Assembly: GCA_041649135.1 (NCBI GenBank)
Contig: JBAZNQ010000002.1
Location: 143,702-207,701, forward strand
DNA: 64,000 bases
Source: Patescibacteria group bacterium
GTDB taxonomy: Bacteria > Patescibacteriota > Kazan-3B-28
Reading direction: 5' to 3'
The translations under genes and the position numbers were made by a program. The notes under the pieces were generated by a model, which saw only the letters and a list, made by a program, of their open reading frames with translations, did not search any database and had not been told where the DNA came from. Below, in pieces: positions 7,854 through 35,126 of the stretch. Numbering within the stretch: the first letter of the stretch is position 1; the number at the start of each line of letters is the position of its first letter.

Positions 7854-8405
7854 ATGGAAACCGAAACCATCCAAGCAGAATCAACTACTACCTCGGCGCC
7901 TCAAGCCGAAGTTACTAGCCCGACCAAAGGCTCTGCTTATTCGTTAACTGAAGTCGCCAAATTTCTCAATGTCAATGAAAGTACTCTTCGCAACTGGGAG
8001 AAACGCTTTGGCGAATACCTCTCCAATTACCGTAATCAGTACAACCACCGGCTATTTACCGATAGTGATATTGCCATGCTGGAACGGGTTAAATACCTGT
8101 TGGAATCGAATCTCTTTACCGTTGCTGGCGTCAAACACATGCTCTCCAATAAAGGAGAGATTTCAGGAGCAGGGGAGAGTGTTCAAACTCAAGCCATCAT
8201 GACCCAACAGGAGAAAGAAGCAGAGGAAGAATACCGTCAGAAACTATTGTTCGCTCTCAACTCTCTTGGCTCTGAAATCCATTCTCTTCGCCGCGAAGTC
8301 AGGGAAGACCTCCGCGGGAGCCTAAAGGCTGAATTAGATCACCTAAAACTCTTACTTTTCCCACCCGAACAACCCAAGAAGAACCCTTGGTATAAGTGGT
8401 GGTAG
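7854..8405 (+). CDS. MerR-family HTH transcriptional regulator with a C-terminal coiled coil
   Basis: YSLTEVAKFLNVNESTLRNWEKRFG...LFTDSDIAMLERVKYLL matches the MerR-type HTH plus dimerisation helix. The track ORF extends upstream through the palindrome array to 7575; the ATG at 7854 (METETIQ) is the more plausible start. Confidence 0.6.
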   Translation: METETIQAESTTTSAPQAEVTSPTKGSAYSLTEVAKFLNVNESTLRNWEKRFGEYLSNYRNQYNHRLFTDSDIAMLERVKYLLESNLFTVAGVKHMLSNKGEISGAGESVQTQAIMTQQEKEAEEEYRQKLLFALNSLGSEIHSLRREVREDLRGSLKAELDHLKLLLFPPEQPKKNPWYKWW

Positions 8406-11758: not shown

Positions 11759-12361
11759 ATGCCTGAACTGCAGTTTGACTCACATTCTGATGCTTCCGAC
11801 CAAGGGTTTTCGACCCCGATCGAGGCTAGCAACCGACCGAACGATGATCGGCTGATTACTCAAGCCCAAGCTGGCGATGAACAAGCTTTTGGTGAGCTCT
11901 ATGATATTTGGGCCGCCAAGGTTTATCGCTTCGTTTACGTCAAAGTCAAAGACGTTGCTGTGGCTGAAGACATCACTTCCGATATCTTCCTGAAAGCTTG
12001 GCAGAAATTGCATCAGTATAAACGACAAGCCGGAGTCAGCTTCTCTAGTTGGCTCTACGCTGTCGCGCGTAACGCCGTTATCGATTATTATCGTCTGACC
12101 AAACATTCAGAATTGTCTTTCGAAGATTTGCCAGAATTGGCCGACCTCGAAGGGCCAGAGCTCTATCGTGAAGTCAGCGAAATCGAAACCGCACTCAAGA
12201 ATTTGCCAGAAGATTACGAAAAAGTTCTTCGTCTTCGCTTCGTCGAGCAGATGCCAATCGCTCGAGTCGCTCAAGTGATGAAGAAAAAAGAAGACAACAT
12301 CCGGGCCCTCACCTCACGCGCGCTTAAGAAGATGAGAGACAACTTGAATCATGAATCATGA
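11759..12361 (+). CDS. ECF-type sigma-70 family RNA polymerase sigma factor
   Basis: Region 2 (FGELYDIWAAKVYRFVYVKVKD...DITSDIFLKAWQKL...SFSSWLYAVARNAVIDYYR) and region 4 (LKNLPEDYEKVLRLRFVEQMPIARVAQVM...RALTSRALKKMR) motifs. Confidence 0.8.
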   Translation: MPELQFDSHSDASDQGFSTPIEASNRPNDDRLITQAQAGDEQAFGELYDIWAAKVYRFVYVKVKDVAVAEDITSDIFLKAWQKLHQYKRQAGVSFSSWLYAVARNAVIDYYRLTKHSELSFEDLPELADLEGPELYREVSEIETALKNLPEDYEKVLRLRFVEQMPIARVAQVMKKKEDNIRALTSRALKKMRDNLNHES

Positions 12362-12391
12362 ATCAAGGATGGCAAATAGGGCACACCTATT

Positions 12392-12583
12392 CGTCATCCC
12401 GTGTTCTGCACTGTCATCCCGAACACTCCGTATTGTCATCCTGAACCCTGGCTGCGTCCCGCACCCGCGGGCAAGCTTGATTCAGGATCCAGTCTCATTC
12501 CGTCCGTCATTCCTGCGGAGGCAGGAATCCAGTTTCTCCCTAACAAACAAATAAAATAGATTCCGGACTAAACCCGGAATGAC
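12392..12583. repeat. Cluster of MITE/REP-like palindromic units between the sigma-factor gene and the downstream membrane-protein gene
   Basis: cGTCATCCCGTG, TGTCATCCCGAAC, TGTCATCCTGAACC..GATTCAGGATCC, CGTCATTCCTGCGGAGGCAGGAATCCAG, CCGGAATGACAAC. Confidence 0.55.
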
Positions 12584-12757
12584 AACGGGGGAAGCTCGGA
12601 ACAACAAAAAATCAGTCGGTAGTCCTTAAGGGTTCTGAAAGAACTTTTGGGGAAATGGGGATACAACCTATTTCTTTAGAAGTACTCGCAGAACCTTTTT
12701 ATAATTTTATTCTTTCACTCCCAACCACTATTCACCGTTCATTATTCACTTTCCTCA

Positions 12758-13771
12758 ATGCCTATCATCAATCACGACAATTTAATCCAAGAAATCAGCA
12801 TTCTAGGTAAAGATGCGAAGTTGTCGTTGACTCAACGACAGGCGATTCGTGATCGCTTATTTAAAAAAATTGGCCAGACTACTTTGATTGACGCAGTTCA
12901 GACCCAAACCGAAGTTGAAGATTTGGTCATGCCCTTGCCGAGTCTCCGTCGGCTATTTACTCCTCGTCGAGTGGTTTTGAGCATCCCAGCTACTGCTGGC
13001 ATGGTAGCGGCCGTATTTGTCGCCACCTTTGCTACTGGTGCCATGGCGCAAACTGCCCAACCGGGCGACCCATTATTTGGTGTCAAAAAAGTTTTTGAAA
13101 CTGTTCAGGTGGCTCTTGCTACCAATCCTTCAGCTCGCGCCGCTGTGAAGCTGGCCATTGTTAACGATCGCTTGCGAGCATTAGAAAATGCTGACACCAC
13201 TCAAGTGGCAGTGATTTTGGCTGAATCGCAGAAAGCTCTCACCAGCGCCCAGACAACTTTATCTACACTTCCTGCAGACAAAGATTTGAATACAAAATTA
13301 AAGACTCTTATCGAATCCCAAAAAACCGTTCTCGCCACTTTGGCGAAGGGCGATGTCAGCACCGATGACACTAAAAAGACTCTGCTCGCTATGCGCGATC
13401 AGTTAGATAAAATCATCGCTCCCGTTGGCACAGTCACACCAATCACAGATACTGAAAAGCCAGCCGTTGTCGACACTACACCAACCCAAGGCTTTGTCAC
13501 TTTGTATGGTTCTATTGGTAGCTACTCTGCCAAACCAACCTTAATGGTTGGTGACAAGCGCTACTACTTAGTTGGTGCAACTATCAATCTCATTTCTTAT
13601 ATGGGCTTCGAGCGAGCCGCCGTATCGGGTGTTTTGAATGGTGATACTATCACGCTTTCCAAGCTGACCATCAACGGTCAGACGATTTGGGAAGCCCCTT
13701 CTCTTAACAACAATCCCGTTGATAACAATTTACCTCGGGTCGAAGGCGACCAAAATTCATCGCCTAGGTAG
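12758..13771 (+). CDS. Single-pass membrane protein with a DUF5667-like extracytoplasmic helical domain; possible anti-sigma factor partner of the upstream ECF sigma
   Basis: Cytoplasmic N-terminus, one TM segment (VVLSIPATAGMVAAVFVATFATGAMA), then a coiled-coil helical domain (LFGVKKVFETVQVALATNP...). Its start codon is directly preceded by the shared ACTATTCAC..TTCACTTTCC motif. The anti-sigma role is inference. Confidence 0.5.
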   Translation: MPIINHDNLIQEISILGKDAKLSLTQRQAIRDRLFKKIGQTTLIDAVQTQTEVEDLVMPLPSLRRLFTPRRVVLSIPATAGMVAAVFVATFATGAMAQTAQPGDPLFGVKKVFETVQVALATNPSARAAVKLAIVNDRLRALENADTTQVAVILAESQKALTSAQTTLSTLPADKDLNTKLKTLIESQKTVLATLAKGDVSTDDTKKTLLAMRDQLDKIIAPVGTVTPITDTEKPAVVDTTPTQGFVTLYGSIGSYSAKPTLMVGDKRYYLVGATINLISYMGFERAAVSGVLNGDTITLSKLTINGQTIWEAPSLNNNPVDNNLPRVEGDQNSSPR

Positions 13772-13827: not shown

Positions 13828-16800
13828 ATGAATAGTTTACTCATGAAAAAGGCGTCCCAGCTCGTAGCTTGGACAATGACCGCTTCCACAGCTTTGTGGA
13901 TGGCCATTCCTAGCGCCGCCGCTGCGACTCCTGTTTACGCATTCAAATGGATTAGTCAGACTCCAGCCACTGTTACCGCCGATGGCGTAGCTCACTATGT
14001 GACTGCCAACCAAGGTGACACAGTAACTTTGTCTGTTACTCTCCAAAACACTGCTGGCAGAGTTATCAAAGGTAAGTCTTCCTTACCAGCAGCCCCAGCC
14101 GGCTATCAAGTTCCAATCGGTTCATACGGTATCGGCGTTCGCGGCGATGCCCAGACCCCTTGGATTGATGCTTCAAGCTTTGTCTTGAACGGTAACCGGT
14201 TTGTTTACTACGATGGTCCAGATGTGGCCATTGGTGGTAACATCACAATGACTTTCACAGTAAAAGTTGCAGCGACTGCCGCTAACGGCACCTACAATCT
14301 TTACTACAAGCCAGTCTTCGATTACGAAGCTTGGACTCGTCAGACAGCTTGGAACGGAAAGATTTTGGACAAAGATAAGTCCGATATCTTCACCCGTTTC
14401 TACGTTGGTACGACTCCAACCGTCAACGGTAACTTGAATGTTGGCATTGCCAGCACCACCCCAGCAGCTACTTCAATTGCCGCTGGTGCGTCTGATGTTC
14501 CAATGGCGAACTTTACGTTCACTGCTGGTGCATCCGATAACGCATTGGTTTCAAGTATTGCCCTTACACGGACTGGACTGTCAGTCGATACCGATGTTAC
14601 TGGTGTCAAACTCTATGATGGGAGCACCCAATTGGGCTCCGAGCAAAGTTTTAACACCACTACACACAAAGCTACCTTTACTGGTTTGGCTTGGTTAATC
14701 CCAGCCGGCACTAGCAAAACTCTGACCGCTTGGGTCTCTACTGCTAGTACAAATGTTGGTGCTGTTATCCAGATTTCTATCGCCGACGCCGCCAGCGTTA
14801 CACTCACTGGTAGTGGTACTATTGGCGGGACTTTCCCTGCCACTGGTAATGGGTTTACGCTAGCCAATGTCTCTGTCGGCACAATGGATGTTATCAAGAC
14901 AGCCGCTCCGGCTATTGGTAACATTCTCTCTGGCAGTACTGATCAACCAATCGCTTCGTTTAAATTCACTTCAGCTACTGAAGGATTTAACATTAATAGC
15001 GTTACCTTCACCGAAACTGGTACATCAGTTGATTCTGATGTCTCCAATCTTCGCTTGAAGCTTAATGGTGTTCAGATTGGTAGTGTTATGCCAGCATTAA
15101 GCGGCGGTATGGTTACCTTTACTGGTAGCCCACTGTTGTCAGTTCCTGCTGGTCAGAATAAGACCATCTACATTGATGCTGACATCGCTTCTGGTGTCAC
15201 TTCACAACGCACAGTCGTCTTCCAAATCTACCAAGCTAGTGATGTTGTGGCCGTTGGTCAGAACTCCCATGCTAACGTAGTGATTCTTGCTAGCGGATCT
15301 GCATTCACTGCTCAAACTGGTCAAGCCCAAACCATCATCCAAGGTACTCTTGGCGTGACCCGGGCCGCCACCAACTTGAGTGCCCAATCATATGTGGTTG
15401 GTACCGCACAAGCTGAAGTAGCCAAGTGGAAGTTTAGTGCTGGTTCTAATGAAGGTATTAAGGTAACTAAGCTTACTTTCACCAACGGTGGTACTTCACC
15501 AACCGCTGCTGATCTTCAGAATGCTCGGCTTTACATCAATGGTTCAGCCGTCGCAACTGATGACAGTGGCACTGTCTCGGCTACTACTATTAGGTTCACC
15601 AATGGCAACGGTCTCTTTACCGTTCCAGTCAGTGGTAACACTGAAGTGACCCTAAAAGTTGATGTCTCTTCATCGGCTACTGCGTCTCACACGCTGAAGT
15701 ATTACTTGTCAGCTGTAACCGATCTTGAGATTTACGGTCTTAGCTCTAATGCTAAAATCGACAGCACTACTGCTAACATCACGCCAATTACTGACGTGGC
15801 TGTTGGTGTAGCTTCCGATCACACCTTAGCTGCTAACGGCACATTAATCGTCGCTGCTGGATCAAATACTCCACCTGCTGCCAACTTCTCGTTGGGTACC
15901 AGCAACTTCGAGTTTATGCAATTCACCATGCAGGCAATTAGCGATGCCGCTCAAGTCACCGCTATTACGCTTCATCTCTTCGATGACACATCTGTTCTTA
16001 CAAATGGTACCGGAGCAGATATTGGCACAGGTGATGTAACTAATGCTAAGCTATACTGGTGGGATGGTACAAGCTGGACCCAATTGGGCAGTACAATCAA
16101 CACGCCATCTACTGGTACAGCCACGTTCAGTTTTAGCCACACGATTCCTGTCAATACTACCGAAACCTACAAGTTAGTTGGGGATATTCCAACTGGCGCT
16201 TCCTTGACCAACTTGTTCGCAGGTATCGGTACGGATGATGACAGCGTCCACATCTATGATGAGGTCACTGCTTCCGGTGTAGCGTCTGGTCTTGCTTACA
16301 CCAGCGGTACTTACATCTCAGCTGCTGATTACGCGTATGGCTCACTGTTCACTAAAGTGACTCCAACTATCACTGCTACTATGTCCACAGTGCCAATCGC
16401 ACGTACTGTAGTTAAAAATAGCAACAATGTTGTTTTGGGCCGTCTGTTGTTAGCCGCTAGCGCCGGTGAGGATATCAACATCTCCACCCTGAGAATTAGC
16501 GCTGATGATACAGATATCTCTGGTAACGGTAGTGATTCTCTCGCCAGCACCAACTTCTCCAACATTCACTTGGGGGCTGACACAAATGGTGATGGTACTT
16601 ATGAATTGACTACTATCAATAAACCATTTACTGATGGTGGTGGTTCAGCGATTGACTATGTCACCTACAGTGGTTCAGATTTCAACAACCCAACTAGCTG
16701 GAAGATTCCTTCCGCTGGTACATTGGTAGTTGATATCTTGGGCAATGTATTGGGCAGTTCCGGTAGCTGGTCGTTTGGTATGGTTGATAACGCCCCAGTT

Positions 16801-18477
16801 ACCAGCATTGTTGGTTCTGGTGCTTCTTCTACCACCGCTGCCACCATTGCCGGTTTGGGCTCTGCCATTACTTCGGCGGTTCTCGGCCTGACTACTGGTG
16901 GTTCGTTGGCGATTACGCTTGATTCGACCTCACCAACTGTCCAACAGGTCACCGCATCATTCTCAAGTAATGTTTCCGCTCCAGTTGCTCGCTTCAAATT
17001 TGCGGCTACAACTGAAGATGTTCGCCTTGAAATGATTCGTGTCACTGACCTTGCCGATGGTAATGATGTTGACTTCAAGTCAGCTGGTATCCACCTTTAT
17101 GAAGGTGGAACAATTGCCAAGGCATCTGATGGCACTTACAGCTTGTCAGGCGGTACCTTAATTGGTACTGGTACTTTGACTGGCACAGGTGCTGAAGCGG
17201 TAGATATTACTTTGAGCCCGGTGGTGATCGTTCCGGTCAACACCTCGAAGTACATCACTATCGTTGCTGACATCAACTCCATCGCTGGTGGTGCTGTATC
17301 CAAGCACATTCCAGCTCTTGGTATTGACCAAGACATTGCTACTGGTAACTGGACCGGTACTGATCCTGATTTCTCTGGCAACTTGCTTAACGTAAAGGCA
17401 AGAGGCGTGTCTTCAGGTGTCGGTATTGGTACTGCTGCCGCAGGTAGCGTCGACTTGATGGGTAATTCCGTCTATGTCGTTAAGACTAAGCTTGGTTTGG
17501 CAGTAAACAGCGCTTCTCCATCTGGTACACAGGTGAGGGTTCCTAACTTCACCATGTATAAGTTGAATGCTACAAACACTTCAACTGATACAGACGCCAG
17601 ATTACGTGCTGGTCTTTCAAAGGACACCGATTCCAACGCAGGTTGGTCAAACCAAGGCACTTTGGCGGCCTACACCACAGACACGACCAAGTATGTAGTT
17701 GGGGCTGGTAGCGTCAACTTTAACAAAGTTGACTTCACTGGCGACAGCACAGAGGGTATTAGTCAAGATGGTGGAGCAACAAGTTTTGCCACTAGCTATA
17801 CCCGTGTGAGCTACTGGGTTCGTTCAACGGCTGCCATTGCGGCTGGCGACCTGACCTTTGTCATGGCTACTGATGCGGCCTTAACTGCTGGCACAGTTAC
17901 CTCTGCTGTAACTGCCTGTGCCATCAACCAATGGTGTCGGATTGACGCGGCCATCACTCCAGGTGCCACTCGGTACTTTGGTGTCGTGGTCTCGCATGCC
18001 AGCAACCAAGATAACAAGACTATTAACGTAGATGGTATTACCTTCTACAACGATAGCCTTAAGCTGACCCTGACTGGTTCGACCACGATGATGTTCGCAA
18101 CAACTGCCAATACTCTTGCAAGTGGCGCGGTTGTTCTGAAGAACGGTAGTCAGACCCTTGCTACTGGTTACTACAACGGTGGCGGTACCGCTGGTCTTTC
18201 GACCACCTATGGTACAGTCACCTTCATCCCAGGGCAGAATAGTGGTGAAACAGAAATCACGATTCCTGCTGGTGGTATGACATTAGACTTTATTGCCGAC
18301 CTTACAACTCTTTGTACGGGTGCTGGTACATTGTCTATCCAGTTGCCGTTAGGTTCTGCAACCTATCTTGGTTCAGTCACTAATGGCCAGGTGTTATGGA
18401 ACGACAACAGTTCCACAACCACCATCGGTTGGGTTGACAGTCCAAACTCTCCGCTCTCTAGAGGTATGACCTTCTAG
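13828..18477 (+). CDS. Giant secreted cell-surface protein (1549 aa) built from repeated Ig-like / beta-sandwich modules of about 90 aa
   Basis: Signal peptide; recurring modules of the form ..(T/S)FT..G.SVD(S/T)DV(T/S).(V/L).L..G...G...; Thr/Ser/Gly/Ala-rich; no enzymatic motif recognised. Confidence 0.8.
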   Translation: MNSLLMKKASQLVAWTMTASTALWMAIPSAAAATPVYAFKWISQTPATVTADGVAHYVTANQGDTVTLSVTLQNTAGRVIKGKSSLPAAPAGYQVPIGSYGIGVRGDAQTPWIDASSFVLNGNRFVYYDGPDVAIGGNITMTFTVKVAATAANGTYNLYYKPVFDYEAWTRQTAWNGKILDKDKSDIFTRFYVGTTPTVNGNLNVGIASTTPAATSIAAGASDVPMANFTFTAGASDNALVSSIALTRTGLSVDTDVTGVKLYDGSTQLGSEQSFNTTTHKATFTGLAWLIPAGTSKTLTAWVSTASTNVGAVIQISIADAASVTLTGSGTIGGTFPATGNGFTLANVSVGTMDVIKTAAPAIGNILSGSTDQPIASFKFTSATEGFNINSVTFTETGTSVDSDVSNLRLKLNGVQIGSVMPALSGGMVTFTGSPLLSVPAGQNKTIYIDADIASGVTSQRTVVFQIYQASDVVAVGQNSHANVVILASGSAFTAQTGQAQTIIQGTLGVTRAATNLSAQSYVVGTAQAEVAKWKFSAGSNEGIKVTKLTFTNGGTSPTAADLQNARLYINGSAVATDDSGTVSATTIRFTNGNGLFTVPVSGNTEVTLKVDVSSSATASHTLKYYLSAVTDLEIYGLSSNAKIDSTTANITPITDVAVGVASDHTLAANGTLIVAAGSNTPPAANFSLGTSNFEFMQFTMQAISDAAQVTAITLHLFDDTSVLTNGTGADIGTGDVTNAKLYWWDGTSWTQLGSTINTPSTGTATFSFSHTIPVNTTETYKLVGDIPTGASLTNLFAGIGTDDDSVHIYDEVTASGVASGLAYTSGTYISAADYAYGSLFTKVTPTITATMSTVPIARTVVKNSNNVVLGRLLLAASAGEDINISTLRISADDTDISGNGSDSLASTNFSNIHLGADTNGDGTYELTTINKPFTDGGGSAIDYVTYSGSDFNNPTSWKIPSAGTLVVDILGNVLGSSGSWSFGMVDNAPVTSIVGSGASSTTAATIAGLGSAITSAVLGLTTGGSLAITLDSTSPTVQQVTASFSSNVSAPVARFKFAATTEDVRLEMIRVTDLADGNDVDFKSAGIHLYEGGTIAKASDGTYSLSGGTLIGTGTLTGTGAEAVDITLSPVVIVPVNTSKYITIVADINSIAGGAVSKHIPALGIDQDIATGNWTGTDPDFSGNLLNVKARGVSSGVGIGTAAAGSVDLMGNSVYVVKTKLGLAVNSASPSGTQVRVPNFTMYKLNATNTSTDTDARLRAGLSKDTDSNAGWSNQGTLAAYTTDTTKYVVGAGSVNFNKVDFTGDSTEGISQDGGATSFATSYTRVSYWVRSTAAIAAGDLTFVMATDAALTAGTVTSAVTACAINQWCRIDAAITPGATRYFGVVVSHASNQDNKTINVDGITFYNDSLKLTLTGSTTMMFATTANTLASGAVVLKNGSQTLATGYYNGGGTAGLSTTYGTVTFIPGQNSGETEITIPAGGMTLDFIADLTTLCTGAGTLSIQLPLGSATYLGSVTNGQVLWNDNSSTTTIGWVDSPNSPLSRGMTF

Positions 18478-21498: not shown

Positions 21499-21611
21499 AA
21501 TCACGAATTCAGAATTATGAATCAAGAGGGGACGGGAAAATGGGGCAGAATTATGAATTTGGAATTATGAATCAAGGGAGGGTAAAAATCAGGAATCAGA
21601 AATCATGAATT

Positions 21612-21995
21612 ATGGGGGAACAGGGGAAGATTAAGAGTTTTACCGACCTGAACGCTTGGCAAGAGGGGCATAAATTGGTTATCATGATATATGTCCTGAC
21701 TAAGACTTTCCCTGATGGGGAGACTTACGGACTTGTTAGTCAGATGCAACGATGCGCAGTGTCTATTACTTCCAATCTGGCTGAAGGCTTTAGCCGACAA
21801 TCATACAGAGAGAAGGTTCAGTTTTACTCTATATCACAGGGCTCCGTAACTGAATTACAAAACCAACTCCTAGTTGCTCGTGATGTTGGGCATGTCTCCC
21901 AATCACAATTTGAGCAACTTGCCAGTCAAGTCATCACTGTACATAAATTGGTTAGTGGGCTGATAAAAAGCTCCAAGTCATTCGTCCGTCCATAA
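21612..21995 (+). CDS. Four-helix-bundle protein of the '23S rRNA intervening-sequence protein' family (TIGR02436-like)
   Basis: AWQEGHKLVIMIYVLTKTFPDGETYGLVSQMQRCAVSITSNLAEGFSRQSYREKVQFYSISQGSVTEL is the family signature. Flanked by inverted AATTATGAATCA repeats. Confidence 0.75.
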   Translation: MGEQGKIKSFTDLNAWQEGHKLVIMIYVLTKTFPDGETYGLVSQMQRCAVSITSNLAEGFSRQSYREKVQFYSISQGSVTELQNQLLVARDVGHVSQSQFEQLASQVITVHKLVSGLIKSSKSFVRP

Positions 21996-22029
21996 TTCTT
22001 AATTCATTATTCATAATTCACTTATTCCT

Positions 22030-22463: not shown

Positions 22464-22557
22464 CAAAAAGAAAGCCGACCTATTTTGGTCGCTCTTTTTG
22501 AATATTTAGCGCCCTAGGTCGGCTTGGGGGTACAAATACCCAGAAACCATCTCGCCG
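22464..22557 (+). repeat. Left copy of a ~92-bp direct repeat (about 88% identity) flanking the MerR-GHKL/STAS cassette; it contains a terminator-like hairpin
   Basis: CAAAAAGAAAGCCGACC-TATTTTGGTCGC...GCGCCCTAGGTCGGCTTGGGG-TACAAATACCCAGAAACCATCTCGCCG aligns with 23805..23895. Confidence 0.6.
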
Positions 22558-22647
22558 CTGTAGTCCAAGAACGAATCAAGATGGACGGGGGACACTCTAT
22601 ACCGATACTGATGTCGTAGGGGAGGGTTGAGGCAAAATCAGGTATTT

Positions 22648-22741
22648 TGTATAGATTTTTAGTCAAATGTATAGATTTTGTATTCTCGTCATGCTATATT
22701 TGGAAAAGAACTGTATAGATTCAGATTAAATTGTATAGGTT
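22648..22741 (+). promoter_or_regulatory. Four direct repeats of TGTATAGATT (the last is TGTATAGGTT) immediately upstream of the MerR-GHKL gene; a likely operator array or promoter
   Basis: Copies at 22648, 22668, 22712 and 22732; the ATG lies at 22745. Confidence 0.5.
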
Positions 22742-22744
22742 TCT

Positions 22745-23485
22745 ATGGAGCGCGAACTACTGAACATTGGGGAGACGGCAAAGATTTTGGGAATCACTCA
22801 ACAAACTCTTCGTCGATGGGATAAGAAAGGCATTCTGACAGCCATCCACCCTAGTGGTAGTCAGCATCGTTATTATCGCCCAGAAGACATCCAGGTATTA
22901 TTATTATCTCGCGACGATATTGTGCAAGCATCTTGGCGATGGGCAACTGCCGAACCACCCGTAGAACCGGCTTCGATGTATTATTGCCAGACCCGCGATG
23001 TGTTCACCGCGCGTTGGGAGCGGCTCGTCGGAGAATTGGCGCGCATCGTCTTGCGGGATGACGGGCAATCTAATCTTATTGCTGGCATTGCTAGCGAGAT
23101 TGGAAATAACTCCTTCGATCACAATATTGGAAATTGGCCAGATATACCGGGTGTCTTTTTCGGATACGATCTTAAGCGACGAGAAATCGTGCTGGCCGAT
23201 CGTGGTCGCGGAATCTTAACTACACTGCGTCAGACACGCCCCGAGCTCAAGAATGATTTAGAGGCCGTGGAGATGGCCTTCACAAAAGCAATTTCAGGTC
23301 GTGCGCCGGAGACACGCGGTAACGGGCTAAAATTTGTTAAGGCGGCAGTGCGTTCGGGAACGAGCATTTCTCTAGTATTTCAATCCGGAGTCGCTCAAAT
23401 TAGTTTAATGCGACGCAATTCACATTTATCTGTGCGTGTGGCTCATCCAGCAATTCAAGGCTGTCTGGCGATTATTAACTTTTAA
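22745..23485 (+). CDS. Fusion protein: N-terminal MerR-type HTH DNA-binding domain plus C-terminal RsbW/SpoIIAB-like GHKL (HATPase_c) serine-kinase/anti-sigma-type domain
   Basis: HTH: IGETAKILGITQQTLRRWDKKGIL...HRYYRPEDI. GHKL boxes: N-box EIGNNSFDH, G1 DRGRGI, G2 GNGLKF. Confidence 0.7.
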   Translation: MERELLNIGETAKILGITQQTLRRWDKKGILTAIHPSGSQHRYYRPEDIQVLLLSRDDIVQASWRWATAEPPVEPASMYYCQTRDVFTARWERLVGELARIVLRDDGQSNLIAGIASEIGNNSFDHNIGNWPDIPGVFFGYDLKRREIVLADRGRGILTTLRQTRPELKNDLEAVEMAFTKAISGRAPETRGNGLKFVKAAVRSGTSISLVFQSGVAQISLMRRNSHLSVRVAHPAIQGCLAIINF

Positions 23486-23497
23486 TCTAAATAGAAT

Positions 23498-23788
23498 ATG
23501 CGTATAGAATTAAAAAGATTTGGTACTACACTAGTTTCCCGTCCAGCCGGTAAAGACTCTTATTTAGCACACCGTGCGGCAATGTCAAAACTTGCAGTAG
23601 ATGAAGAAATCATATTTGATTTTGCGGGTGTGGATGTTTTAACCCCTTCTTGGGCCGATGAGTTTATTACGCCATTTGTAAAACAGTACCCAAATCAAAT
23701 CAAGTTTGAACATACGGATAATTTGTCGATTCGAGTGACATTGGATATCCTTCGACAGGTCTGGAGCGGTGCAGAAGACCTGGAGTAG
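23498..23788 (+). CDS. STAS-like (DUF4325-type) small protein, putative antagonist partner of the upstream GHKL kinase
   Basis: 96 aa; RFGTTLVSRPAGKDSYL...IIFDFAGVDVLTPSWADEFITPFV matches the DUF4325/STAS-like pattern. The gap to the kinase gene is 13 nt. Confidence 0.6.
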   Translation: MRIELKRFGTTLVSRPAGKDSYLAHRAAMSKLAVDEEIIFDFAGVDVLTPSWADEFITPFVKQYPNQIKFEHTDNLSIRVTLDILRQVWSGAEDLE

Positions 23789-23804
23789 GGAGCTCTACTT
23801 TAAT

Positions 23805-23895
23805 CAAAAAGAAAGCCGACCATTTTGGTCGCTTATAGTAAATATGAAGCGCCCTGGTCGGCTTGGGGTACAAATACCCAGAAACCATCTCGCCG
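23805..23895 (+). repeat. Right copy of the ~92-bp direct repeat flanking the MerR-GHKL/STAS cassette
   Basis: Aligns with 22464..22557. Confidence 0.6.
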
Positions 23896-24257
23896 TCTTC
23901 CCCCGAAGGGGAGATAACGCAGGGGCTAAAAACATTTTTGTTTTGGTTTTGTACCTAGGATCTTGCGATCCTAAGTTTTTAATTGCCCCGCGCGAGGACA
24001 GTAACGGGAGATAGGGCATCATCCCAAGGGATGTTTGCTCTCTCTTCCGTTAGCTTCTGGTCTAGTTGTGAAGGAACCCACTACCAAATTACTTCAGTAT
24101 ACACAAAAAATACCCATTTGGCAATAGTACACGCCTGTTTATCGTATAATTATCGCTCTGGAAGCCAAAAGATTTTTTCTTATCCACATTGATTTTGGCT
24201 GGACAATTTATCTAAAGTCAGTTAATCTCTAGCCAATCCCAATTGGAGGTTTTGTAC

Positions 24258-24446
24258 ATGTCGAAGTCCAGTAAGTCCGGCCAACGGTCCGGCAAGGAGC
24301 CACTCAAACAATCTGGTGCCACTAGCCAGACAGCAAAAGCTAAGGACATGCGAACCAAGCATGCGAAGAGGGAGGCCGACAAACAGGCTGCGAAGGCCGC
24401 TCGCAAGCGGGCTCGTCGTGGTTCGCCGCCCCCTAGCAAGGAGTAA
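24258..24446 (+). CDS. Small lysine/alanine-rich basic protein (62 aa)
   Basis: GGAGG 8 nt upstream of the ATG at 24258 (the track start is a TTG at 24243). Product MSKSSKSGQRSGKEPLKQSGATSQTAKAKDMRTKHAKREADKQAAKAARKRARRGSPPPSKE. Confidence 0.4.
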   Translation: MSKSSKSGQRSGKEPLKQSGATSQTAKAKDMRTKHAKREADKQAAKAARKRARRGSPPPSKE

Positions 24447-24532
24447 GCCTGTCGCTGGGAAGGCTTTCTCCCAGAATCACACATCTGTACCATTTACCCC
24501 GGGCAAGTCCCGGGGGTTCTTTTTGTCTTTTC

Positions 24533-30209: not shown

Positions 30210-33200
30210 CTACCCCATGTTCTCTTTCGAAAAGTGGGTTTTATCATAATGCTCTACCCATGCCAGCGCGACGGCGGCCGCTAGAGTTAGGCCAAGCAGG
30301 ATGAGCTGGAGTCCGTTCATACCAGTCACCGGCAAACGTTTTGGTCCGTGATAGTTGACTACATCAGCAATTTTAACTATTGCCACCGTGTAGCCAATTT
30401 TACCGTTGTAAAGAGTCGCGACCAACACATCATCATAGTAAGTCCCCAAATTCTTTCCGGCCACAAAGGTACTGGTACTCGAATCACCATTTGTACCATT
30501 CAAGTCGATTGTACCGCTTTTTTCAATCAGCACATGCCATTTGAATTTCAATGTTTCGATTACTTTACCATCAGTATCATAACCAATCGCTTTAAATACT
30601 TGTTTACCATTGGGTAGGAGAGTGGTCTCGCTCGGCTTGATTTCTACTCGGTCAATAATCCGACCAGTATCATCCTCTACCTCTTCCAGCTCTTCCAATA
30701 ATTCCTCCTCGTCGAGAGCTTTATAGACACTCATTACTGCCGCCGCATTGGCCAGTCCAGTATCTGGCCACTGGGGGTAGTTATCGGCAATTGCAATTGA
30801 CACTAGACCAGTCACGGAATCTTTAAAGTAAACCGTTACTCCAGTTTGATCACCATCAGTAGTCAGGTATTGTGGCATACCATTTTCATCATTTTGAGCT
30901 ACCAGCAAGTATGGCAACTTATTTTGGTTGAGATCATAAAAGGCACCGGTAGTAGTCGAACTATAGAAGTACAATTTATCCGGCAGAGTCAAAGTACTAC
31001 CATCAACTGATTGAGCAGTAATATTGATTGGCGAGCTGAATCGTCCAACTTTAACACTCGTGCTACAATTACCCATTTTCAAAGAGTCCAATGGTCGTTC
31101 GCCGGCAATTACCTCAACTAATTTTGTACCAGCTGGCCAACCCTTGTTCGGATCTTCTAACGCCAAAATAGTCAAAAAGTTTGGTGTGGAAACCATCGTG
31201 TCTTGGTAATAAAAAGTGGCTGTACTGGAACCTTGGGCAATTGTGATGTGCGGGTTTTCGCCTAAAGCTTTTTTGCTCGAGTTCCAGAATGAACCAGTCT
31301 CGCGTTCTTGTACACCCAAGTGGGCTCTTAGTCCGATACTGATATTTTCCTCTGCCAAATAGTCTTCTTCAGACAAACTGTCGACTAATTTCACAATAAA
31401 CGGCACGCTCTCCTGCCCAACCACAACATACACCAGCGAAACAGCTGGGGAGACAATCCGGACAACCGGGTCAGCCGTAGTAAATTCCCATTCTTTCGGT
31501 GCATCTTTCAGGCCAGACTTGTCTTCAGCGTCAAAAGCCGATTTGATAATCACTTTATAAACCGCACCGGGCGTCAGTTCTCCATACCGCTGATTGGCTG
31601 GATCTAGTGGGGGGGTAAGAGTAAACAAAGCATTGCTGTGACCTTCCCGTTCACTCCAAGTTGGTTTCCAATCTTCCAACTCCGCAGGTGTAAATTCATA
31701 GCCGCTTTCTGCCAATGAATATGTAAATGGATGTTCTGTATCATCAAGCAATACCGAACGGTTAAAACCGATCTCGATGGGTTGCTTCAGCGGATTATTG
31801 TCGGGATGGTCAAGCGCTGGCTTATAGTAGACGATTTGTAGTGGTAGCGATGGGTCGCCCTCTTCCACATCGACCGTTACCTTCACCTCGGACTTTTCCG
31901 GCGGGCTTACCAATGCGTCCCATACATAAGCTGTGTTGGTAATGGTAGTCGGCACTTCTATTGTTCCTCTAGCTACCGCCTCAAAACTAAAAGTCAGGGG
32001 AGAGGAATTGGGTAATACTCCGCTAGCTTTTGCTCTCACCGTTTGAGTCGCTTCGTCATAGTACGGCGGGATAGTCCATCGGCTGTCTTCTTTGAAATTG
32101 ATCGGACCGGGACCAAAGAAGATCGGTGGTTGTCCGGACGAATTATCATACGCTGGCACAAAATCACTGAATTCAATATCACCCAGCGTAGTGCCGGTGT
32201 TGGCAAGCGATACTGAATAAGTTACTGTATCACCAGCCCGAACCGTAGTGGGGGAGACAGTCATCTGACTGGTGGTGACCACGGCGTCGTGAGCAATTTT
32301 AAAACTGTCCCAACAGGGTAGCGGCACATCCGGCTCTTCGGTATAGTTCTCATTGTCATAAATATTAGCCGTTAACTTACTGTTAAATGAATTGCCAAGA
32401 TATGGGATGTTAATTTTGACGGTAAATTTTACTACCACCGGAAACCCATACCTAATCGGTACACTAGAACTATTGCGCCATTCCAGTCTCACCACCCGAC
32501 CACCTTCAGAGATTGGTACCATCGTACCTCCGCCAGGATTGTCAGTTCGGACGTATGTTAGTTCATCTGGAATACTGATTTTTGCCGCTACATTAGTGGC
32601 GTCATCACCACTAAGATTTTCAAGCGTCAAGGTAAACTGTGCCTCATCTCCAGTGTTGTATGACCCATCACCATTTGGTCCGTTGGGCACTTCTAATCTT
32701 GGAAACAGGTTCGGACTTATCAATCGCTGGGTTTTAAAAGTGAATTTTTTGGGAGCTGGAAACTGTAAGTCTTTTATATGATCAGGACACAACATGACAC
32801 TAGTATCCCCCCCCCAGCGACAGATCTCTGGTTCTGGATGGTCACCAGCATCATTCTGTGGTGGCTGATAGCACAAGGCACCACATGGGTATGAACAGGA
32901 GTTGCTGTTCAGCTGGTTGCCAGCTTCATCAGTCGCATTAGTAATATCAAAAGTATACTCGGTCTCATAATCCATTCCGGAATGTGATACCACTATTTTC
33001 GTATCTCCCTCGCTCCAAACTACAGATAATCCTGCCACCGGAGTTTTTTGTGCGTCGGCACTTTTATAAAACTCATACCTGAATGTGTTTGTAACAATCG
33101 GTTCGGAAAAATAAATTCTTATCGGTTGAGCAATCACGACAGGCTCACCATAATTATGATAAATACCCTGACCGTCACGGGGATCAGTACCGCCATTAAA

Positions 33201-35126
33201 CGGAATCTGGGGTGCGAGCAGATCGATCGTAGTCATTGCATCCCAACTTGCTGGCGGGTCTTCCACATTATTGTTGTTGTCTGTAGCTACTGAATAGAAA
33301 GACCATGTTTCGCCATGTTTTACTGGTACGTTCCAGCTATACGGAGCAGAAGTATCCGGATTACTAGCGTCGCCCCATAATACATAGTTATCACCATCAA
33401 GACTAATATAAAGGGCAACGTCTCTTACACCGCTATTACCATCACTAGCCGTGGCAGTAACTGCTAATTTTGAGTCAAAACATCGGTCTTCAGTTGTACT
33501 ATAAGGGGAATCAGGCTTTACTACTTGTGATTCCGGCGCAGTCTTATCTTCCGATGGCGGAGTGCCACCCGTGGTGTAACCAACCGTCAGGTCATCTAAG
33601 ATTGGTGCAGTTCCGGTCGGATAAATTTTAAGATAAATAGTGTTGCCTCCTAATGGCCAACTACCCAGCACACCCGCTGGCAACAGATCACTCAATTTGG
33701 TGGCAAAGGCTGGAGCATCGGTGTCGGAAGTCTTCCAACTACCAGTAGCAGTATCGTAGTAATACCATGTAGTGCCTCCAGCAGTCAGACCAAACGCGAT
33801 TTTAATTTCGCCAGTATTTAATGCGTGATACGTTGCGGTTACGCTGGTAACAGATCCCACATGTGCTATTCCTGTCGCTGTGACCATTGAAGTATCACTT
33901 GCTACTGCAGTTGCTTTCCAAACATCCGCTGCCCCTCCAACTGTTTCGGCCGAACCAAATAGCAGTACTGTTCCAGTATCCACTAATGCGCCATTCCGGA
34001 TCGGCCCGTTAGTATCAGCAATTGCAGTATGGGAAAGCCAATGGGCGCCATTGTCTAACGTACTCACAATATTAGTAGGGTCACCAGCGGTCGCAACGGC
34101 CGCGAAGGGGATTGACTGGTAGCTTGCGAAATCCATTACTGCTGTGCCAGTACCCATTGCGGCAGAAATATCCGTCCAGTCAGCTGGGTCATTTAAAGTT
34201 CCACCTCCGCCCAAGTTAAGATTGGTAGCATAAATTGAACCGCCCATGCCGCCTACACCTCCGCCCACATACAGCCAGCCCCCGATATACGCCGCAGTTC
34301 GCAAATACTTTGGCGTTCCCGGCAGAGTTGCTTCCGACCAACCCGCTCCGCCGTTGGTGGTATAAGCTAGGTGTCCAGCATTGGCCGCCGCCGCATCGTA
34401 TCCGACCATGATAATCGTATTAGAGCTGGTGCAGATGATATCGGTCGGAGTTGGAACTATCGCAGTCATGACTGCGGTTACTCCCCAGCTCTGTCCTTTA
34501 TCAGACGAAACATAGGTGTGGCCCACATCATCTACGGCATAAGCCTTGGAGTTAGTAGTATCCCAAGTTACCGATACCCAGCCAGTAGCGCCAGCGGCCA
34601 ACGCGATCCCACTCACATTCCAGTTTGCTCCGCTATCGTCTGAATAATATGATGCTGGATTACCGGCCCCATCATCTCCTACGGCGATGAGGTCTGTGTC
34701 AGTAGTCTCGATGATCTGAAGATTATTAGTGACACCCGTAGCGACCGATGACCACGTTGCTCCACCGTCGGTAGATTTATATGCGTCTCCACCATTAGCT
34801 TCCATGGTTGCCCACAGCGTCCCGTCAGACGCATACTCTATGTTTCTAACTGCCAAAGCGGCCGGTAGGCCAGTCCCATATCCAGTTGAAGTCCAAGTGT
34901 CATAGAAATGAGCCACCCCATCGCCGGTTCCGTCGTAGTCAAAAATACTGATGTTCGTGTCTAATAGATAGTCACCAGCGGCATTAAAATCCCATGTTTG
35001 AGTTTCCGCACCCGCACGCGCTACATTTGTTCCCATCCAGCTGATCGGCAGGATACTTTGGATCACTAAAATCACAGCTGTTAAAACTGCCAGTCGCTTG
35101 CGTTGTTCAACTAAAGCTTTGAACAT
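30210..35126 (-). CDS. Giant cell-wall-anchored surface protein (1638 aa) with BNR/Asp-box (S-x-D-x-G-x-T-W) beta-propeller repeats and a C-terminal LPXTG sortase signal
   Basis: Signal peptide; Asp-boxes STDGGATWSS, SDDSGANWNV, SSDKGQSWGV, TTNGGAGWSE and LDNGAHWLS; C-terminus KRLPVTGMNGLQLILLGLTLAAAVALAWV plus a charged tail, which is a canonical LPXTG sorting signal. Confidence 0.8.
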   Translation of the reverse strand: MFKALVEQRKRLAVLTAVILVIQSILPISWMGTNVARAGAETQTWDFNAAGDYLLDTNISIFDYDGTGDGVAHFYDTWTSTGYGTGLPAALAVRNIEYASDGTLWATMEANGGDAYKSTDGGATWSSVATGVTNNLQIIETTDTDLIAVGDDGAGNPASYYSDDSGANWNVSGIALAAGATGWVSVTWDTTNSKAYAVDDVGHTYVSSDKGQSWGVTAVMTAIVPTPTDIICTSSNTIIMVGYDAAAANAGHLAYTTNGGAGWSEATLPGTPKYLRTAAYIGGWLYVGGGVGGMGGSIYATNLNLGGGGTLNDPADWTDISAAMGTGTAVMDFASYQSIPFAAVATAGDPTNIVSTLDNGAHWLSHTAIADTNGPIRNGALVDTGTVLLFGSAETVGGAADVWKATAVASDTSMVTATGIAHVGSVTSVTATYHALNTGEIKIAFGLTAGGTTWYYYDTATGSWKTSDTDAPAFATKLSDLLPAGVLGSWPLGGNTIYLKIYPTGTAPILDDLTVGYTTGGTPPSEDKTAPESQVVKPDSPYSTTEDRCFDSKLAVTATASDGNSGVRDVALYISLDGDNYVLWGDASNPDTSAPYSWNVPVKHGETWSFYSVATDNNNNVEDPPASWDAMTTIDLLAPQIPFNGGTDPRDGQGIYHNYGEPVVIAQPIRIYFSEPIVTNTFRYEFYKSADAQKTPVAGLSVVWSEGDTKIVVSHSGMDYETEYTFDITNATDEAGNQLNSNSCSYPCGALCYQPPQNDAGDHPEPEICRWGGDTSVMLCPDHIKDLQFPAPKKFTFKTQRLISPNLFPRLEVPNGPNGDGSYNTGDEAQFTLTLENLSGDDATNVAAKISIPDELTYVRTDNPGGGTMVPISEGGRVVRLEWRNSSSVPIRYGFPVVVKFTVKINIPYLGNSFNSKLTANIYDNENYTEEPDVPLPCWDSFKIAHDAVVTTSQMTVSPTTVRAGDTVTYSVSLANTGTTLGDIEFSDFVPAYDNSSGQPPIFFGPGPINFKEDSRWTIPPYYDEATQTVRAKASGVLPNSSPLTFSFEAVARGTIEVPTTITNTAYVWDALVSPPEKSEVKVTVDVEEGDPSLPLQIVYYKPALDHPDNNPLKQPIEIGFNRSVLLDDTEHPFTYSLAESGYEFTPAELEDWKPTWSEREGHSNALFTLTPPLDPANQRYGELTPGAVYKVIIKSAFDAEDKSGLKDAPKEWEFTTADPVVRIVSPAVSLVYVVVGQESVPFIVKLVDSLSEEDYLAEENISIGLRAHLGVQERETGSFWNSSKKALGENPHITIAQGSSTATFYYQDTMVSTPNFLTILALEDPNKGWPAGTKLVEVIAGERPLDSLKMGNCSTSVKVGRFSSPINITAQSVDGSTLTLPDKLYFYSSTTTGAFYDLNQNKLPYLLVAQNDENGMPQYLTTDGDQTGVTVYFKDSVTGLVSIAIADNYPQWPDTGLANAAAVMSVYKALDEEELLEELEEVEDDTGRIIDRVEIKPSETTLLPNGKQVFKAIGYDTDGKVIETLKFKWHVLIEKSGTIDLNGTNGDSSTSTFVAGKNLGTYYDDVLVATLYNGKIGYTVAIVKIADVVNYHGPKRLPVTGMNGLQLILLGLTLAAAVALAWVEHYDKTHFSKENMG

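Follow-up and report, generated by a model that had tools for sequence, protein, structure and literature searches.

Described kinase-substrate systems

The closest described systems to the locus considered here are CapK/CapS and VapKSC, in which a GHKL kinase is paired with a DUF4325-STAS protein (Chambers et al., EMBO J 2026, PMC13373217). CapKS was reported from Enterobacter roggenkampii and Vibrio cholerae and precedes an immune operon in 348/443 cases; mutation of CapK N218 strongly lowers CapS phosphorylation, and deletion of the CapK HTH produces no phenotype (PMC13373217). CapK is a protein of 368 aa with the domain order HTH-STAS-GHKL, and CapS is a repressor with a DNA-binding wHTH that acts at palindromic sites. 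VapKSC is a three-gene operon that includes a VapC-like PIN toxin; its kinase, VapK, contains a STAS domain but lacks an HTH, and its substrate, VapS, is a STAS-only DUF4325 protein. Two further precedents are SpoIIAB/SpoIIAA and RsbW/RsbV, with small GHKL serine-kinase folds carrying N, G1, and G2 boxes, and SiaB/SiaC of Pseudomonas aeruginosa, in which SiaC is a DUF1987 protein that acts on a diguanylate cyclase. For DNA binding, the relevant example is BldC, a stand-alone protein of 68 residues with a MerR-like wHTH and no coiled coil, whose cooperative multimers assemble head-to-tail on direct repeats (PMC5859096).

The cassette described here occupies part of a 64-kb stretch of patescibacterial DNA, called the window below. 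It consists of two plus-strand genes, the first encoding an HTH-GHKL protein and the second a STAS protein. The first-pass annotation took this arrangement to be an uncharacterised kind of system, a view that no longer holds because CapK/CapS and VapKSC, now described (PMC13373217), are homologous pairs. As in CapK/CapS, a GHKL kinase gene is followed at once by the gene of a STAS-domain substrate, the kinase carries an N-terminal HTH and a kinase domain that is homologous in sequence with the catalytic Asn aligned, an absolutely conserved Ser of the substrate falls at the aligned position, and the operon is predicted to regulate its own promoter. As in VapKSC, a STAS-only DUF4325 substrate is paired with a CapK-like kinase.

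There are also differences. The HTH of gene 1 is MerR/BldC-like, unlike that of CapK, and gene 1 has an HTH and no STAS domain where VapK has the reverse; the DNA-binding wHTH of CapS has no equivalent in gene 2, and phased direct repeats take the place of the CapS palindromes, so that the DNA-binding role has shifted from substrate to kinase. Neither a VapC/PIN gene nor a conserved third gene accompanies the cassette, and the C-terminal inhibitory helix region of VapS appeared in a cursory comparison to be absent from gene 2. The architecture is thus a novel variant within the CapK/CapS-VapKSC class, defined by an HTH on the kinase, a STAS-only substrate, direct-repeat operators, and the lack of an adjoining immune operon, and no paper found in the literature joins an HTH-GHKL protein and a STAS-only partner with CPR bacteria. 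With moderate confidence, the cassette is read here as a self-contained, self-regulated kinase-substrate switch of the CapK/CapS type with an architecture specific to the Patescibacteria (CPR). These bacteria have tiny genomes with very few recognisable regulators, and their sensing and responses are experimentally almost uncharted. The link to CapK/CapS supplies a testable mechanism, with N122 as catalytic residue, S51 as acceptor, and a defined operator, and it extends the class well past anti-phage regulation in Proteobacteria.

Gene 1: a winged HTH joined to a divergent GHKL domain

Gene 1 (22745-23485, plus strand) encodes a CapK-like kinase of 246 aa with an N-terminal MerR/BldC/Xis-like winged HTH at aa 5-54 (22757-22906), the segment matched by Pfam MerR_1, MerR, and HTH_17. 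This domain lacks the coiled-coil dimerisation helix of MerR proteins, and residues T21, R23, and R24 lie within its recognition helix. BldC is a structural match of the HTH, which differs from it in forming the N-terminal part of a kinase. The NCBIfam HTH_BldC model scores 23.7 bits, below its cut-off of 77.

The C-terminal part of the protein (aa 84-246; 22994-23482) is a divergent GHKL (Bergerat-fold) domain, as its fold, its invariant motifs, and its homology to CapK indicate. An N box (E118-H126, including N122; 23096-23122) with the motif EIGNNSFDH, a G1 box (D152-G156; 23198-23212) within DRGRGI, and a G2 box (R191-K196; 23315-23332) reading RGNGLK are all present, and E118, N121, N122, H126, D152, R153, G154, G156, and R191-K196 are invariant among 36 homologues. 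The first-pass annotation had described a MerR-type HTH joined to a HATPase_c domain; the HTH, the motifs, and a small GHKL fold with its three boxes were borne out, but detection of HATPase_c by HMM search was not. HMMER gave no Pfam HATPase_c match, whether the single protein (E <= 1) or 24 members of the family (E <= 10) were searched, HATPase_c_2 was likewise unmatched, and the domain had no match in NCBIfam or in PDB sequences, the latter searched with both the single protein and a 24-sequence profile. Because Pfam misses the GHKL domain, thousands of proteins could be better annotated with a new family model.

The relation to CapK emerges from direct comparison, for which the E. roggenkampii sequence was taken from the supplement of PMC13373217. 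Alignment of profiles with hhalign gave Prob 76% and E 2.3e-5 over 104 columns, confined to the GHKL part, and BLASTP (E 4e-5) placed N122 opposite CapK N218. Residues 57-107 of gene 1 are helices throughout, which leaves no room for a STAS domain; gene 1 accordingly has no internal ssDNA-sensing STAS domain of the CapK kind and no counterpart of the ssDNA-binding STAS/GHKL interface around W68. PADLOC matched only the HTH of the cassette, as mad1; weak matches to DrmA and PDC-M02B were taken as noise.

The best structural matches of the kinase domain are SpoIIAB, RsbW, and UsfX, which bears on a reading of the cassette as a classical anti-sigma switch, with the GHKL domain holding a sigma factor such as a nearby ECF sigma, gene 2 acting as the antagonist, and the HTH serving as a DNA tether. 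An ECF sigma/DUF5667 pair does lie in the window at 11759-13771, and the cassette of the closest relative (L001) stands between two such pairs. The DUF5667 proteins are presumably the likelier partners of these sigma factors, however, which weighs against the anti-sigma reading, as does the lack of neighbouring sigma genes at the other surveyed loci, L001 being the only one where they adjoin the cassette. Homology, moreover, points to CapK, whose target is a repressor rather than a sigma factor. Sequence similarity to SpoIIAB/RsbW in hhalign was not significant with the approximate sequences used for these two proteins, although the regions from N box to G1 aligned. The cassette also departs from SpoIIAB/RsbW in having its kinase fused to a DNA-binding domain and in showing no evident sigma-factor target or PP2C phosphatase; its lack of a PP2C gene and its use of a DNA-binding domain equally set it apart from SiaB/SiaC, an operon that includes the PP2C phosphatase SiaA and involves no such domain. 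An anti-sigma switch is considered very unlikely.

Gene 2: a STAS-only DUF4325 protein

Gene 2 (23498-23788, plus strand) encodes a protein of 96 aa that consists of a STAS domain only. Its first-pass description as a STAS-like DUF4325 protein was confirmed by a Pfam DUF4325 match (E 4.5e-9) and by a STAS fold; Pfam STAS (PF01740) did not match. The best structural matches are SpoIIAA and RsbV, the partners of the best matches of gene 1, and with them it shares a Ser that opens the helix after the third strand. This residue, Ser51 (codon 23648-23650), is invariant in 81/81 homologues and aligns with the phospho-serines CapS S54 and VapS S48. Sequence matches to CapS (E 0.0026) and VapS (E 0.18) are weak; VapS is nevertheless the sole meaningful PDB sequence match of the gene 2 family profile, and Pfam DUF4325 matches the VapS fragment with E 3.9e-16. 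A plasmid search with the VapS fragment for the VapK gene returned only a truncated DUF4325 ORF.

In the proposed mechanism, the GHKL domain of gene 1 would bind the co-translated STAS protein and phosphorylate Ser51 with ATP, in the manner of SpoIIAB-SpoIIAA and CapK-CapS. Phosphorylation at this position is predicted from the fold, from homology, and because the catalytic Asn and the acceptor Ser both align.

Predicted operator repeats and cassette promoter

Four short direct repeats lie 5' of gene 1 on the plus strand, as first described; three are exact copies of TGTATAGATT and one reads TGTATAGGTT. Repeats 1 and 2 (22648..22677) are TGTATAGATT at 22648-22657 and 22668-22677, and repeats 3 and 4 (22712..22741) are TGTATAGATT at 22712-22721 and TGTATAGGTT at 22732-22741, giving start-to-start spacings of 20, 44, and 20 nt. 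A putative extended -10 element, TGcTATATT (22692-22700, plus strand), can be read between the two pairs; repeat 2 overlaps the corresponding -35 position, and repeats 3 and 4 fall between the -10 and the gene 1 ATG. A consensus promoter scan did not report this -10 because the -35 is weak. Promoters of homologues read TGnTAnnnT, or else TTGACA-17-TATAAT, whose spacer then holds a repeat, and repeats are often situated within or beside promoters of the TTGACA-17-TATAAT or extended -10 kinds.

Upstream of homologues, the core [CT]ATAG[AGT]TT has a density of 11.8 per kb, about 100-fold above the background of 0.114 per kb. Phased repeat pairs are found in 67/84 loci, with spacings that peak at 10, 20, and 21 bp. 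The third base of the operator covaries with residue 24 in the recognition helix of the HTH (G with R, 52; G with another residue, 0; A with R, 4; A with another residue, 7), a pattern that could stem from a single evolutionary event or a small number of them. Conservation, helical phasing, and protein-DNA covariation across about 80 loci thus uphold the initial operator-like reading and strongly support identification of the TGTATAGATT repeats as a predicted operator. BldC sites likewise contain variable numbers of direct repeats with a periodicity of roughly one turn, although the BldC repeat is of the AATT type and the cassette core is YATAGNTT.

Comparative genomics shows the operator and ties it to the HTH, and on this basis gene 1 would bind the phased repeats around its own -10 head-to-tail through its BldC-like wHTH, with repression of the two-gene operon as the predicted sign of the effect. 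Oligomerisation of the HTH-kinase on the repeats might then depend on the bound or released state of the STAS protein, and altered oligomerisation is proposed to lead in turn to altered expression of the operon. That DNA binding by gene 1 is gated by partner switching, as the first-pass annotation supposed, is something that we only infer.

Several considerations count against a self-regulated switch. Across 84 loci, each about 10 kb long, and the window, which holds no further exact TGTATAGATT copy, phased operator pairs were found at the promoter of the cassette and nowhere else, and a transcription factor with its own promoter as the sole target found is unusual. By analogy, the dispensability of the CapK HTH would also weigh against this reading. 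The HTH-less pairs outside CPR, the failure of HMMER to detect HATPase_c, the weak sequence matches of gene 2 to CapS and VapS, and the lack of a PP2C-type phosphatase that might reset the switch in the neighbourhoods surveyed point the same way.

Flanking repeats and possible mobility

The cassette is bracketed by two direct repeats of about 92 bp, copy 1 at 22464-22557 (94 nt) and copy 2 at 23805-23895 (91 nt), neither assigned to a strand. They enclose the promoter region and the two ORFs and nothing else, in line with the two bracketed genes of the first-pass annotation. In the alignment (blastn E 2e-28), which has 3 gaps, the copies agree at 84/94 positions (89%), with an exact block of 31 nt in common. 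Each holds a minus-strand hairpin with a T-run (22491-22476 in copy 1, 23831-23817 in copy 2); copy 1 has a terminator-like site on each strand (fold z about -2.5), and copy 2, which begins 17 nt past the gene 2 stop codon, turns its hairpin and T-run toward convergent tRNA-Thr and tRNA-Pro genes. Rfam gave no match to the flanking repeats or the intergenic regions. Of the suggested recurrence of the repeat as an att-like site there was no sign: no third copy was found in the window or in 86 homologous loci. The one metagenome match (L087) was due to chance and lies inside the ispD gene of an unrelated bacterium. Integron attC sites were also considered and rejected, since the repeats lack a core of the GTTRRRY type, number only two, and have no integrase with them.

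Bracketing repeats were found in 11/76 other loci and in 9/226 controls (p = 0.003). Several of these are copies of the end of an adjacent gene, set tight against the cassette boundaries; the brackets are unrelated in sequence between genomes, with lengths of 22-150 bp. The recurring brackets and the poor synteny around homologous cassettes lend some support to the earlier proposal that the unit was acquired or is mobile; the brackets hint at mobility. Such recurrent duplications may indicate an undescribed route of cassette insertion. The 92-bp repeats would most simply be target sequence that was duplicated when the cassette went in, together with a minus-strand terminator for the convergent tRNA genes.

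It is possible, though it falls short of an even chance, that these particular repeats are instead an incidental local duplication of an intergenic terminator or small-RNA element, unconnected with the arrival of the cassette. The repeat exists in just two copies, 11% diverged, in both of which the minus-strand hairpin and T-run are kept; the cassette shows no compositional anomaly; and the 92-bp repeat is missing from L001, a syntenic relative that does carry the cassette. The excess of analogous brackets over controls and the tight placement of copied gene ends at cassette boundaries argue the other way.

In another reading, the cassette is a small mobile element, in which the HTH would be an excisionase-like directionality factor and the 92-bp repeats attL/attR. 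Flanking repeats are indeed enriched at cassettes, and one cassette (L088) directly follows a large serine recombinase. Against this, no recombinase or transposase was found among the scanned ORFs of the window or beside the cassette in the surveyed loci, and the variability of the flanking repeats in sequence and length makes them a poor fit to site-specific recombination; on both grounds, nothing marks the 92-bp repeat as an att site. The short repeats behave like an operator in overlapping the promoter and covarying with the HTH, and only one relative, at a prophage edge, was found among the 2.9 million viral contigs of IMG/VR. A mobile element of this kind is regarded as very improbable.

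A composite reading is also unlikely. It holds that the cassette is the chief signal-responsive transcription switch of Patescibacteria, or one among very few, with the CapK-like kinase as a DNA-binding, STAS-gated repressor that answers to a cue such as energy charge or DNA damage, and at the same time a minimal selfish unit that moves between genomes with no recombinase of its own. If this were true, recombinase-free spread with long, variable target duplications would be an undescribed mode of cassette mobility.

Pairing, distribution, and gene neighbourhood

The two genes are consistently found together. They are separated by 12 nt, not the 13 nt first given, and the gap in homologous pairs has a median of 8 nt, with a 4-nt overlap in 16/80. 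The expected co-occurrence was found in 83/83 informative loci: of 86 loci fetched, the partner ORF is intact in 82 and frameshifted in one (L033), and three, ended by contig edges, were excluded. Homologues of gene 1 form 4,515 clusters at 90% identity, and a genome scan gave at least 538 relatives. The pair is spread over hundreds of species of Patescibacteria, and the HTH-bearing family, unlike CapKS with its reports from Enterobacter roggenkampii and Vibrio cholerae, is almost entirely confined to that group. Versions of the pair without an HTH occur outside CPR, which implies that the core function is independent of DNA binding. Within Microgenomates, identity roughly follows taxonomy (78% within Roizmanbacteria, 64% between Microgenomates phyla, and 51% to others).

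The window is not a defence island, a context that the first-pass annotation had proposed to look for. Neighbours in the window are housekeeping genes (L28, RNase H, an M50 protease, tRNAs, and tmRNA), with convergent tRNA genes downstream of the cassette and no adjoining immune operon. CapKS, as noted, lies upstream of immune operons, whereas the genes 3' of homologues in 72 loci are heterogeneous, mostly housekeeping, and in few cases defence-related. That survey revealed no conserved third gene, VapC/PIN genes were neither adjacent in the window nor among the commonest downstream families in the same loci, and PP2C-type phosphatases were not seen in the neighbourhoods surveyed.

These data also bear on whether the cassette is a stress, toxin-antitoxin-like, or defence module of the VapKSC kind, in which the HTH would provide tight autoregulation only, and the STAS protein would sequester an effector encoded elsewhere, or restrain a harmful activity of the kinase itself, until Ser51 phosphorylation released the activity. 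Gene 2 is STAS-only, as is VapS, the VapC antitoxin; DUF4325 genes are transcriptionally coupled to a VapC-like PIN family (PMC5499597); and one DUF4325 gene lies within a prophage accessory region. Confinement of the operator to the cassette's own promoter would suit such a module, as would the HTH-less pairs, one of which adjoins a Gp49/HI1420 toxin-antitoxin pair, the variable genomic context with its recurring brackets, the presence of two cassette copies in one MAG, and the AbiE, RT, MTase, or Cas1 genes that adjoin some homologues. The lack of a conserved third gene, the housekeeping context in the window, and the restriction of PADLOC matches to the HTH speak against it, and a pair that is very widespread and well conserved, with identity that tracks taxonomy, looks more like a core regulator. 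A module of this kind is judged rather unlikely.

In current annotation, the two proteins appear merely as a 'MerR family regulator' and a 'STAS-like' or 'DUF4325' protein.

Organization of the cassette

The cassette consists of a gene for an HTH-GHKL protein (gene 1, 22745-23485, 246 aa) and a gene for a STAS-only protein of Pfam family DUF4325 (gene 2, 23498-23788, 96 aa), separated by 12 nt. The arrangement described in the first-pass annotation, in which flanking repeats, two genes and short operator-like repeats occur together, was borne out in the window. The two 92-bp direct repeats (22464-22557 and 23805-23895) share 84 identities over 94 aligned positions with three single-base gaps (blastn E 2e-28) and bracket only a non-coding leader followed by two ORFs in the same orientation; a search of the 64-kb window revealed no other copies. 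The short repeat TGTATAGATT is exact at 22648, 22668 and 22712, with a one-mismatch copy at 22732, and no further exact copy lies within the 64-kb window.

The kinase-like protein and its STAS partner

Residues 5-54 of gene 1 match Pfam MerR_1, MerR and HTH_17, and its AlphaFold2 model (pLDDT 89) contains a winged HTH that lacks the long coiled-coil helix typical of classical MerR proteins. The C-terminal 175 residues had no HMMER match in Pfam or among PDB sequences, even with a 24-sequence profile, an outcome that the first-pass annotation had itself named as formally refuting its HATPase_c proposal. The N, G1 and G2 boxes are invariant in 36 homologues of ~50% identity (E118, N121, N122 and H126; D152-R-G-x-G156; R191-G-N-G-L-K196). 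Two further residues, C81 (YC motif, 80-81) and C240 (GC motif, 239-240), are nearly invariant and could form a redox or metal site. In gene 2, residues P50, S51, W52 and D54 are invariant in 81 homologues, and S51, the predicted phospho-acceptor, is located where the helix after the third strand begins.

Relationship to CapK/CapS and VapKSC

The closest precedents are the CapK/CapS and VapKSC systems (Chambers et al., EMBO J 2026; PMC13373217). CapK is an HTH-STAS-GHKL kinase that is activated by ssDNA and phosphorylates the conserved serine S54 of CapS, a STAS-wHTH repressor of its own promoter and of the adjacent immune operon. In VapKSC, VapS (S48) consists of STAS alone, acts as antitoxin to the VapC nuclease and is released upon phosphorylation (PMC13373217). 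In a comparison with the CapK and CapS sequences, taken from the supplementary GenBank file of that paper, the CapK kinase domain matched the family profile of gene 1 over 104 columns (Prob 76%, E 2.3e-5; BLASTP, E 4e-5), and N122, the predicted catalytic Asn, fell on CapK catalytic N218. The gene 2 profile matched CapS (E 0.0026), with S51 aligned to S54, and its sole meaningful match among all PDB sequences was VapS (E 0.18), where S51 falls on chain residue 66, equivalent to S48 assuming an 18-residue tag. The aligned VapS fragment itself matches DUF4325 (E 3.9e-16), which accounts for the earlier reported coupling of DUF4325 genes to a VapC-like PIN family (PMC5499597).

Judged from these alignments, the cassette belongs to a broad class of CapK-like kinases paired with DUF4325-STAS proteins. 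It departs from CapK in that gene 1 lacks an internal STAS domain and carries an HTH of a different, MerR/BldC-like type, and from CapS in that gene 2 has no wHTH and the sites are direct repeats rather than palindromes. In contrast to VapKSC, no VapC is present, and unlike CapK/CapS, the cassette adjoins no immune operon. Its neighbors in the window are housekeeping genes, and a survey of 72 loci revealed heterogeneous downstream genes, among them NUDIX, HrcA, RpoB, ligase and TatC; few are of defence type (AbiE, RT, MTase or Cas1). The interpretation in the first-pass annotation was right in part, namely in its domain identities, operator and hint of mobility, and was partly superseded by the 2026 characterization of a related system. 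The cassette represents a variant of the CapK/CapS class that is specific to CPR, widespread and uncharacterised, in which the DNA-binding function has been relocated.

Distribution and pairing

Gene 1 homologues form 4,515 clusters at 90% identity, nearly all full length, and a scan of one genome per species identified at least 538 relatives, essentially all in Patescibacteria MAGs. A C-terminal profile matched only 576 clusters among 1.84 billion cluster representatives, in two length classes (~240-260 aa with the HTH and ~188-204 aa without it), so that this domain is a compact, isolated GHKL clade. A gene 2 homologue lies directly downstream in 82 of the 86 fetched loci; one more is frameshifted and three are cut by contig ends. 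The intergenic gap has a median of 8 nt, with a 4-nt overlap in 16 of 80 pairs. HTH-less kinases (180-194 aa; 37-39% identity to the gene 1 C-terminal domain) paired with DUF4325 genes occur in Endomicrobium and Margulisbacteria (L089 1884-2694; L090 4407-5261).

Several individual loci deserve mention. The HTH-less pair of L089 adjoins a Gp49/HI1420 toxin–antitoxin pair. The frameshift, in an A-run, splits the gene 2 homologue of L033 (5755-6026), reflecting an assembly error or a pseudogene. One Peribacteria MAG carries cassettes on different contigs (L016 and L049) whose gene 1 proteins are 84% identical, representing paralogues or mixed strains. The otherwise CPR-restricted cassette also occurs in several 'binchicken' MAGs titled 'uncultured Gammaproteobacteria' (L008, L027, L042, L047, L051, L053 and others), titles that are probably wrong because these proteins group with Microgenomates. 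The sole relative from a viral collection (IMG/VR contig L088, 3209-5732) lies directly 3' of a large serine recombinase gene and terminase genes, and hence at a prophage edge.

A predicted operator of phased direct repeats

The motif TTGCATAGATT or TGTATAGATT is found 5' of gene 1 homologues in very different CPR lineages, or is replaced there by lineage-specific variants that include GGGTAGATTT, TTACCTAGGTT and TGTATAACTTT, in two to seven direct copies. The core [CT]ATAG[AGT]TT occurs 11.8 times per kb in the upstream 150 nt, compared to 0.114 per kb per strand over the remainder of the loci; at least one core is present in 72 of 84 loci and a phased pair in 67 of 84. Start-to-start spacings peak sharply at 10 nt (50 cases), 20 nt (27) and 21 nt (28), which corresponds to one or two helical turns. 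Promoters of the form TTGACA-17-TATAAT or TGnTAnnnT commonly contain or adjoin the repeats. In the window, a putative extended -10 element, TGcTATATT (22692-22700), lies between the two repeat pairs; it was read by eye, the consensus scanner being silent. The short repeats are therefore best described as a conserved, predicted operator.

Repeat position 3 co-varies with R24, the second Arg in the TLRRW motif of the recognition helix (Fisher p = 6e-7). Where this position is G, residue 24 is Arg in 52 of 52 loci, while a non-Arg residue (K, Q, N, E or L) accompanies A in 7 of 11 loci and T in 3 of 4, counts that probably reflect few independent events given the likely interrelatedness of the non-Arg sequences. 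This covariation links the short repeats to the gene 1 HTH. Variable numbers of direct repeats, here with predicted recognition by the gene 1 HTH, resemble the sites of BldC, which forms head-to-tail cooperative multimers on such arrays (PMC5859096). No phased operator pair was found elsewhere in ~840 kb of flanking sequence and the 64-kb window; the cassette's own promoter is the only target demonstrable from sequence.

Flanking repeats and possible mobility

The 92-bp repeats had no Rfam match, fold moderately better than shuffled sequence (z about -2.5), and both end in a hairpin and T-run on the minus strand. Copy 2 faces the convergent genes for tRNA-Thr and tRNA-Pro and could serve as their transcription terminator. 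The repeat was absent from all 86 related loci, including the closest, syntenic relative L001, a metagenome pattern scan returned one chance match only, and the cassette exhibits no GC anomaly.

Comparison of the 600 nt upstream with the 600 nt downstream of the pair revealed direct similarity in 11 of 76 other loci, as compared with 9 of 226 pairs in the shifted control (Fisher p = 0.003). Several brackets lie tight against the cassette boundaries (L041, 45 bp; L020, 22 bp; L084, 24 bp; L053, in which the 3'-terminal 32 bp of the upstream ORF recur 9 nt after the gene 2 stop). Others enclose one extra gene, with a repeat of 103 bp beginning at a tRNA 3' end in L052 and 150 bp of the downstream gene's 5' end in L021. 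The bracket repeats are 22-150 bp long, mostly 77-92% identical and unrelated in sequence between genomes. Flanking genes are unshared even among Roizmanbacteria with 76-82% identical gene 1 proteins, and one MAG holds two copies. Recurrent brackets of unrelated sequence and unshared flanks suggest that the promoter and two-gene unit has been repeatedly inserted with long target duplication. Site-specific integration and DDE transposition do not fit the bracket pattern, and no recombinase accompanies the cassette. For this otherwise unexplained insertion signature, one conceivable route would be a circular intermediate, from a donor diverged by roughly 10%, that integrated by a single crossover.

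A proposed self-regulated kinase–STAS switch

The best supported reading, which we hold to be somewhat probable, is a self-regulated switch of three steps. The HTH-kinase would sit on the phased repeats around its own -10 element and repress the operon. Its GHKL domain would bind the co-translated STAS protein and phosphorylate S51. Binding or release of the STAS protein would then alter oligomerization of the HTH-kinase on DNA. The scheme draws on computed homology, fold, aligned catalytic and acceptor residues, obligatory pairing, a conserved phased operator and operator-HTH covariation; DNA binding by gene 1, the sign of regulation, S51 phosphorylation and the gating of DNA binding are the parts that we infer. 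No PP2C phosphatase was seen in the neighborhoods examined. The main alternative, which we consider unlikely, is that the pair is a stress or toxin–antitoxin-type module in the manner of VapKS, with an HTH that serves autoregulation only. It is favored by the single operator target, the occurrence of kinases lacking the HTH, a substrate made of STAS alone and the signs of mobility; the missing third gene and a broad distribution that partly follows taxonomy argue against it.

Other features of the window

The window and L001 share the gene order M16 peptidase, MerR, MnmA, ECF sigma, DUF5667. A second MerR_1-domain protein, encoded at 7575-8405 (276 aa, HTH at aa 122-192), has a long N-terminal extension, and the equivalent position in L001 also holds a MerR_1 gene. 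ECF sigma factor and DUF5667 pairs are encoded at 11759-13771 in the window and at 4383-5751 and 7257-8926 in L001. In L001, DUF5667 is followed directly by the cassette and then by the second pair; in the window, DUF5667 and the cassette are ~8.7 kb apart, separated by genes for surface or membrane proteins. AT-rich repeats of the GAATTATGAATCAAG type, both direct and inverted, flank a 23S-rRNA-intervening-sequence protein gene (21612-21995) at 21500-21619 and 21990-22019. Several hairpins and terminator-like sites lie in the ~640 nt at 23896-24532, a stretch without a convincing gene or an Rfam match; the small, very basic ORF that it contains (24243-24446, 67 aa) has no Pfam match. Giant ORFs occupy 13828-18477 (1549 aa) and 30210-35126 (1638 aa); the product of the former is repetitive and Thr/Ser/Ala-rich with an N-terminal signal-like segment, as is typical of CPR surface proteins.
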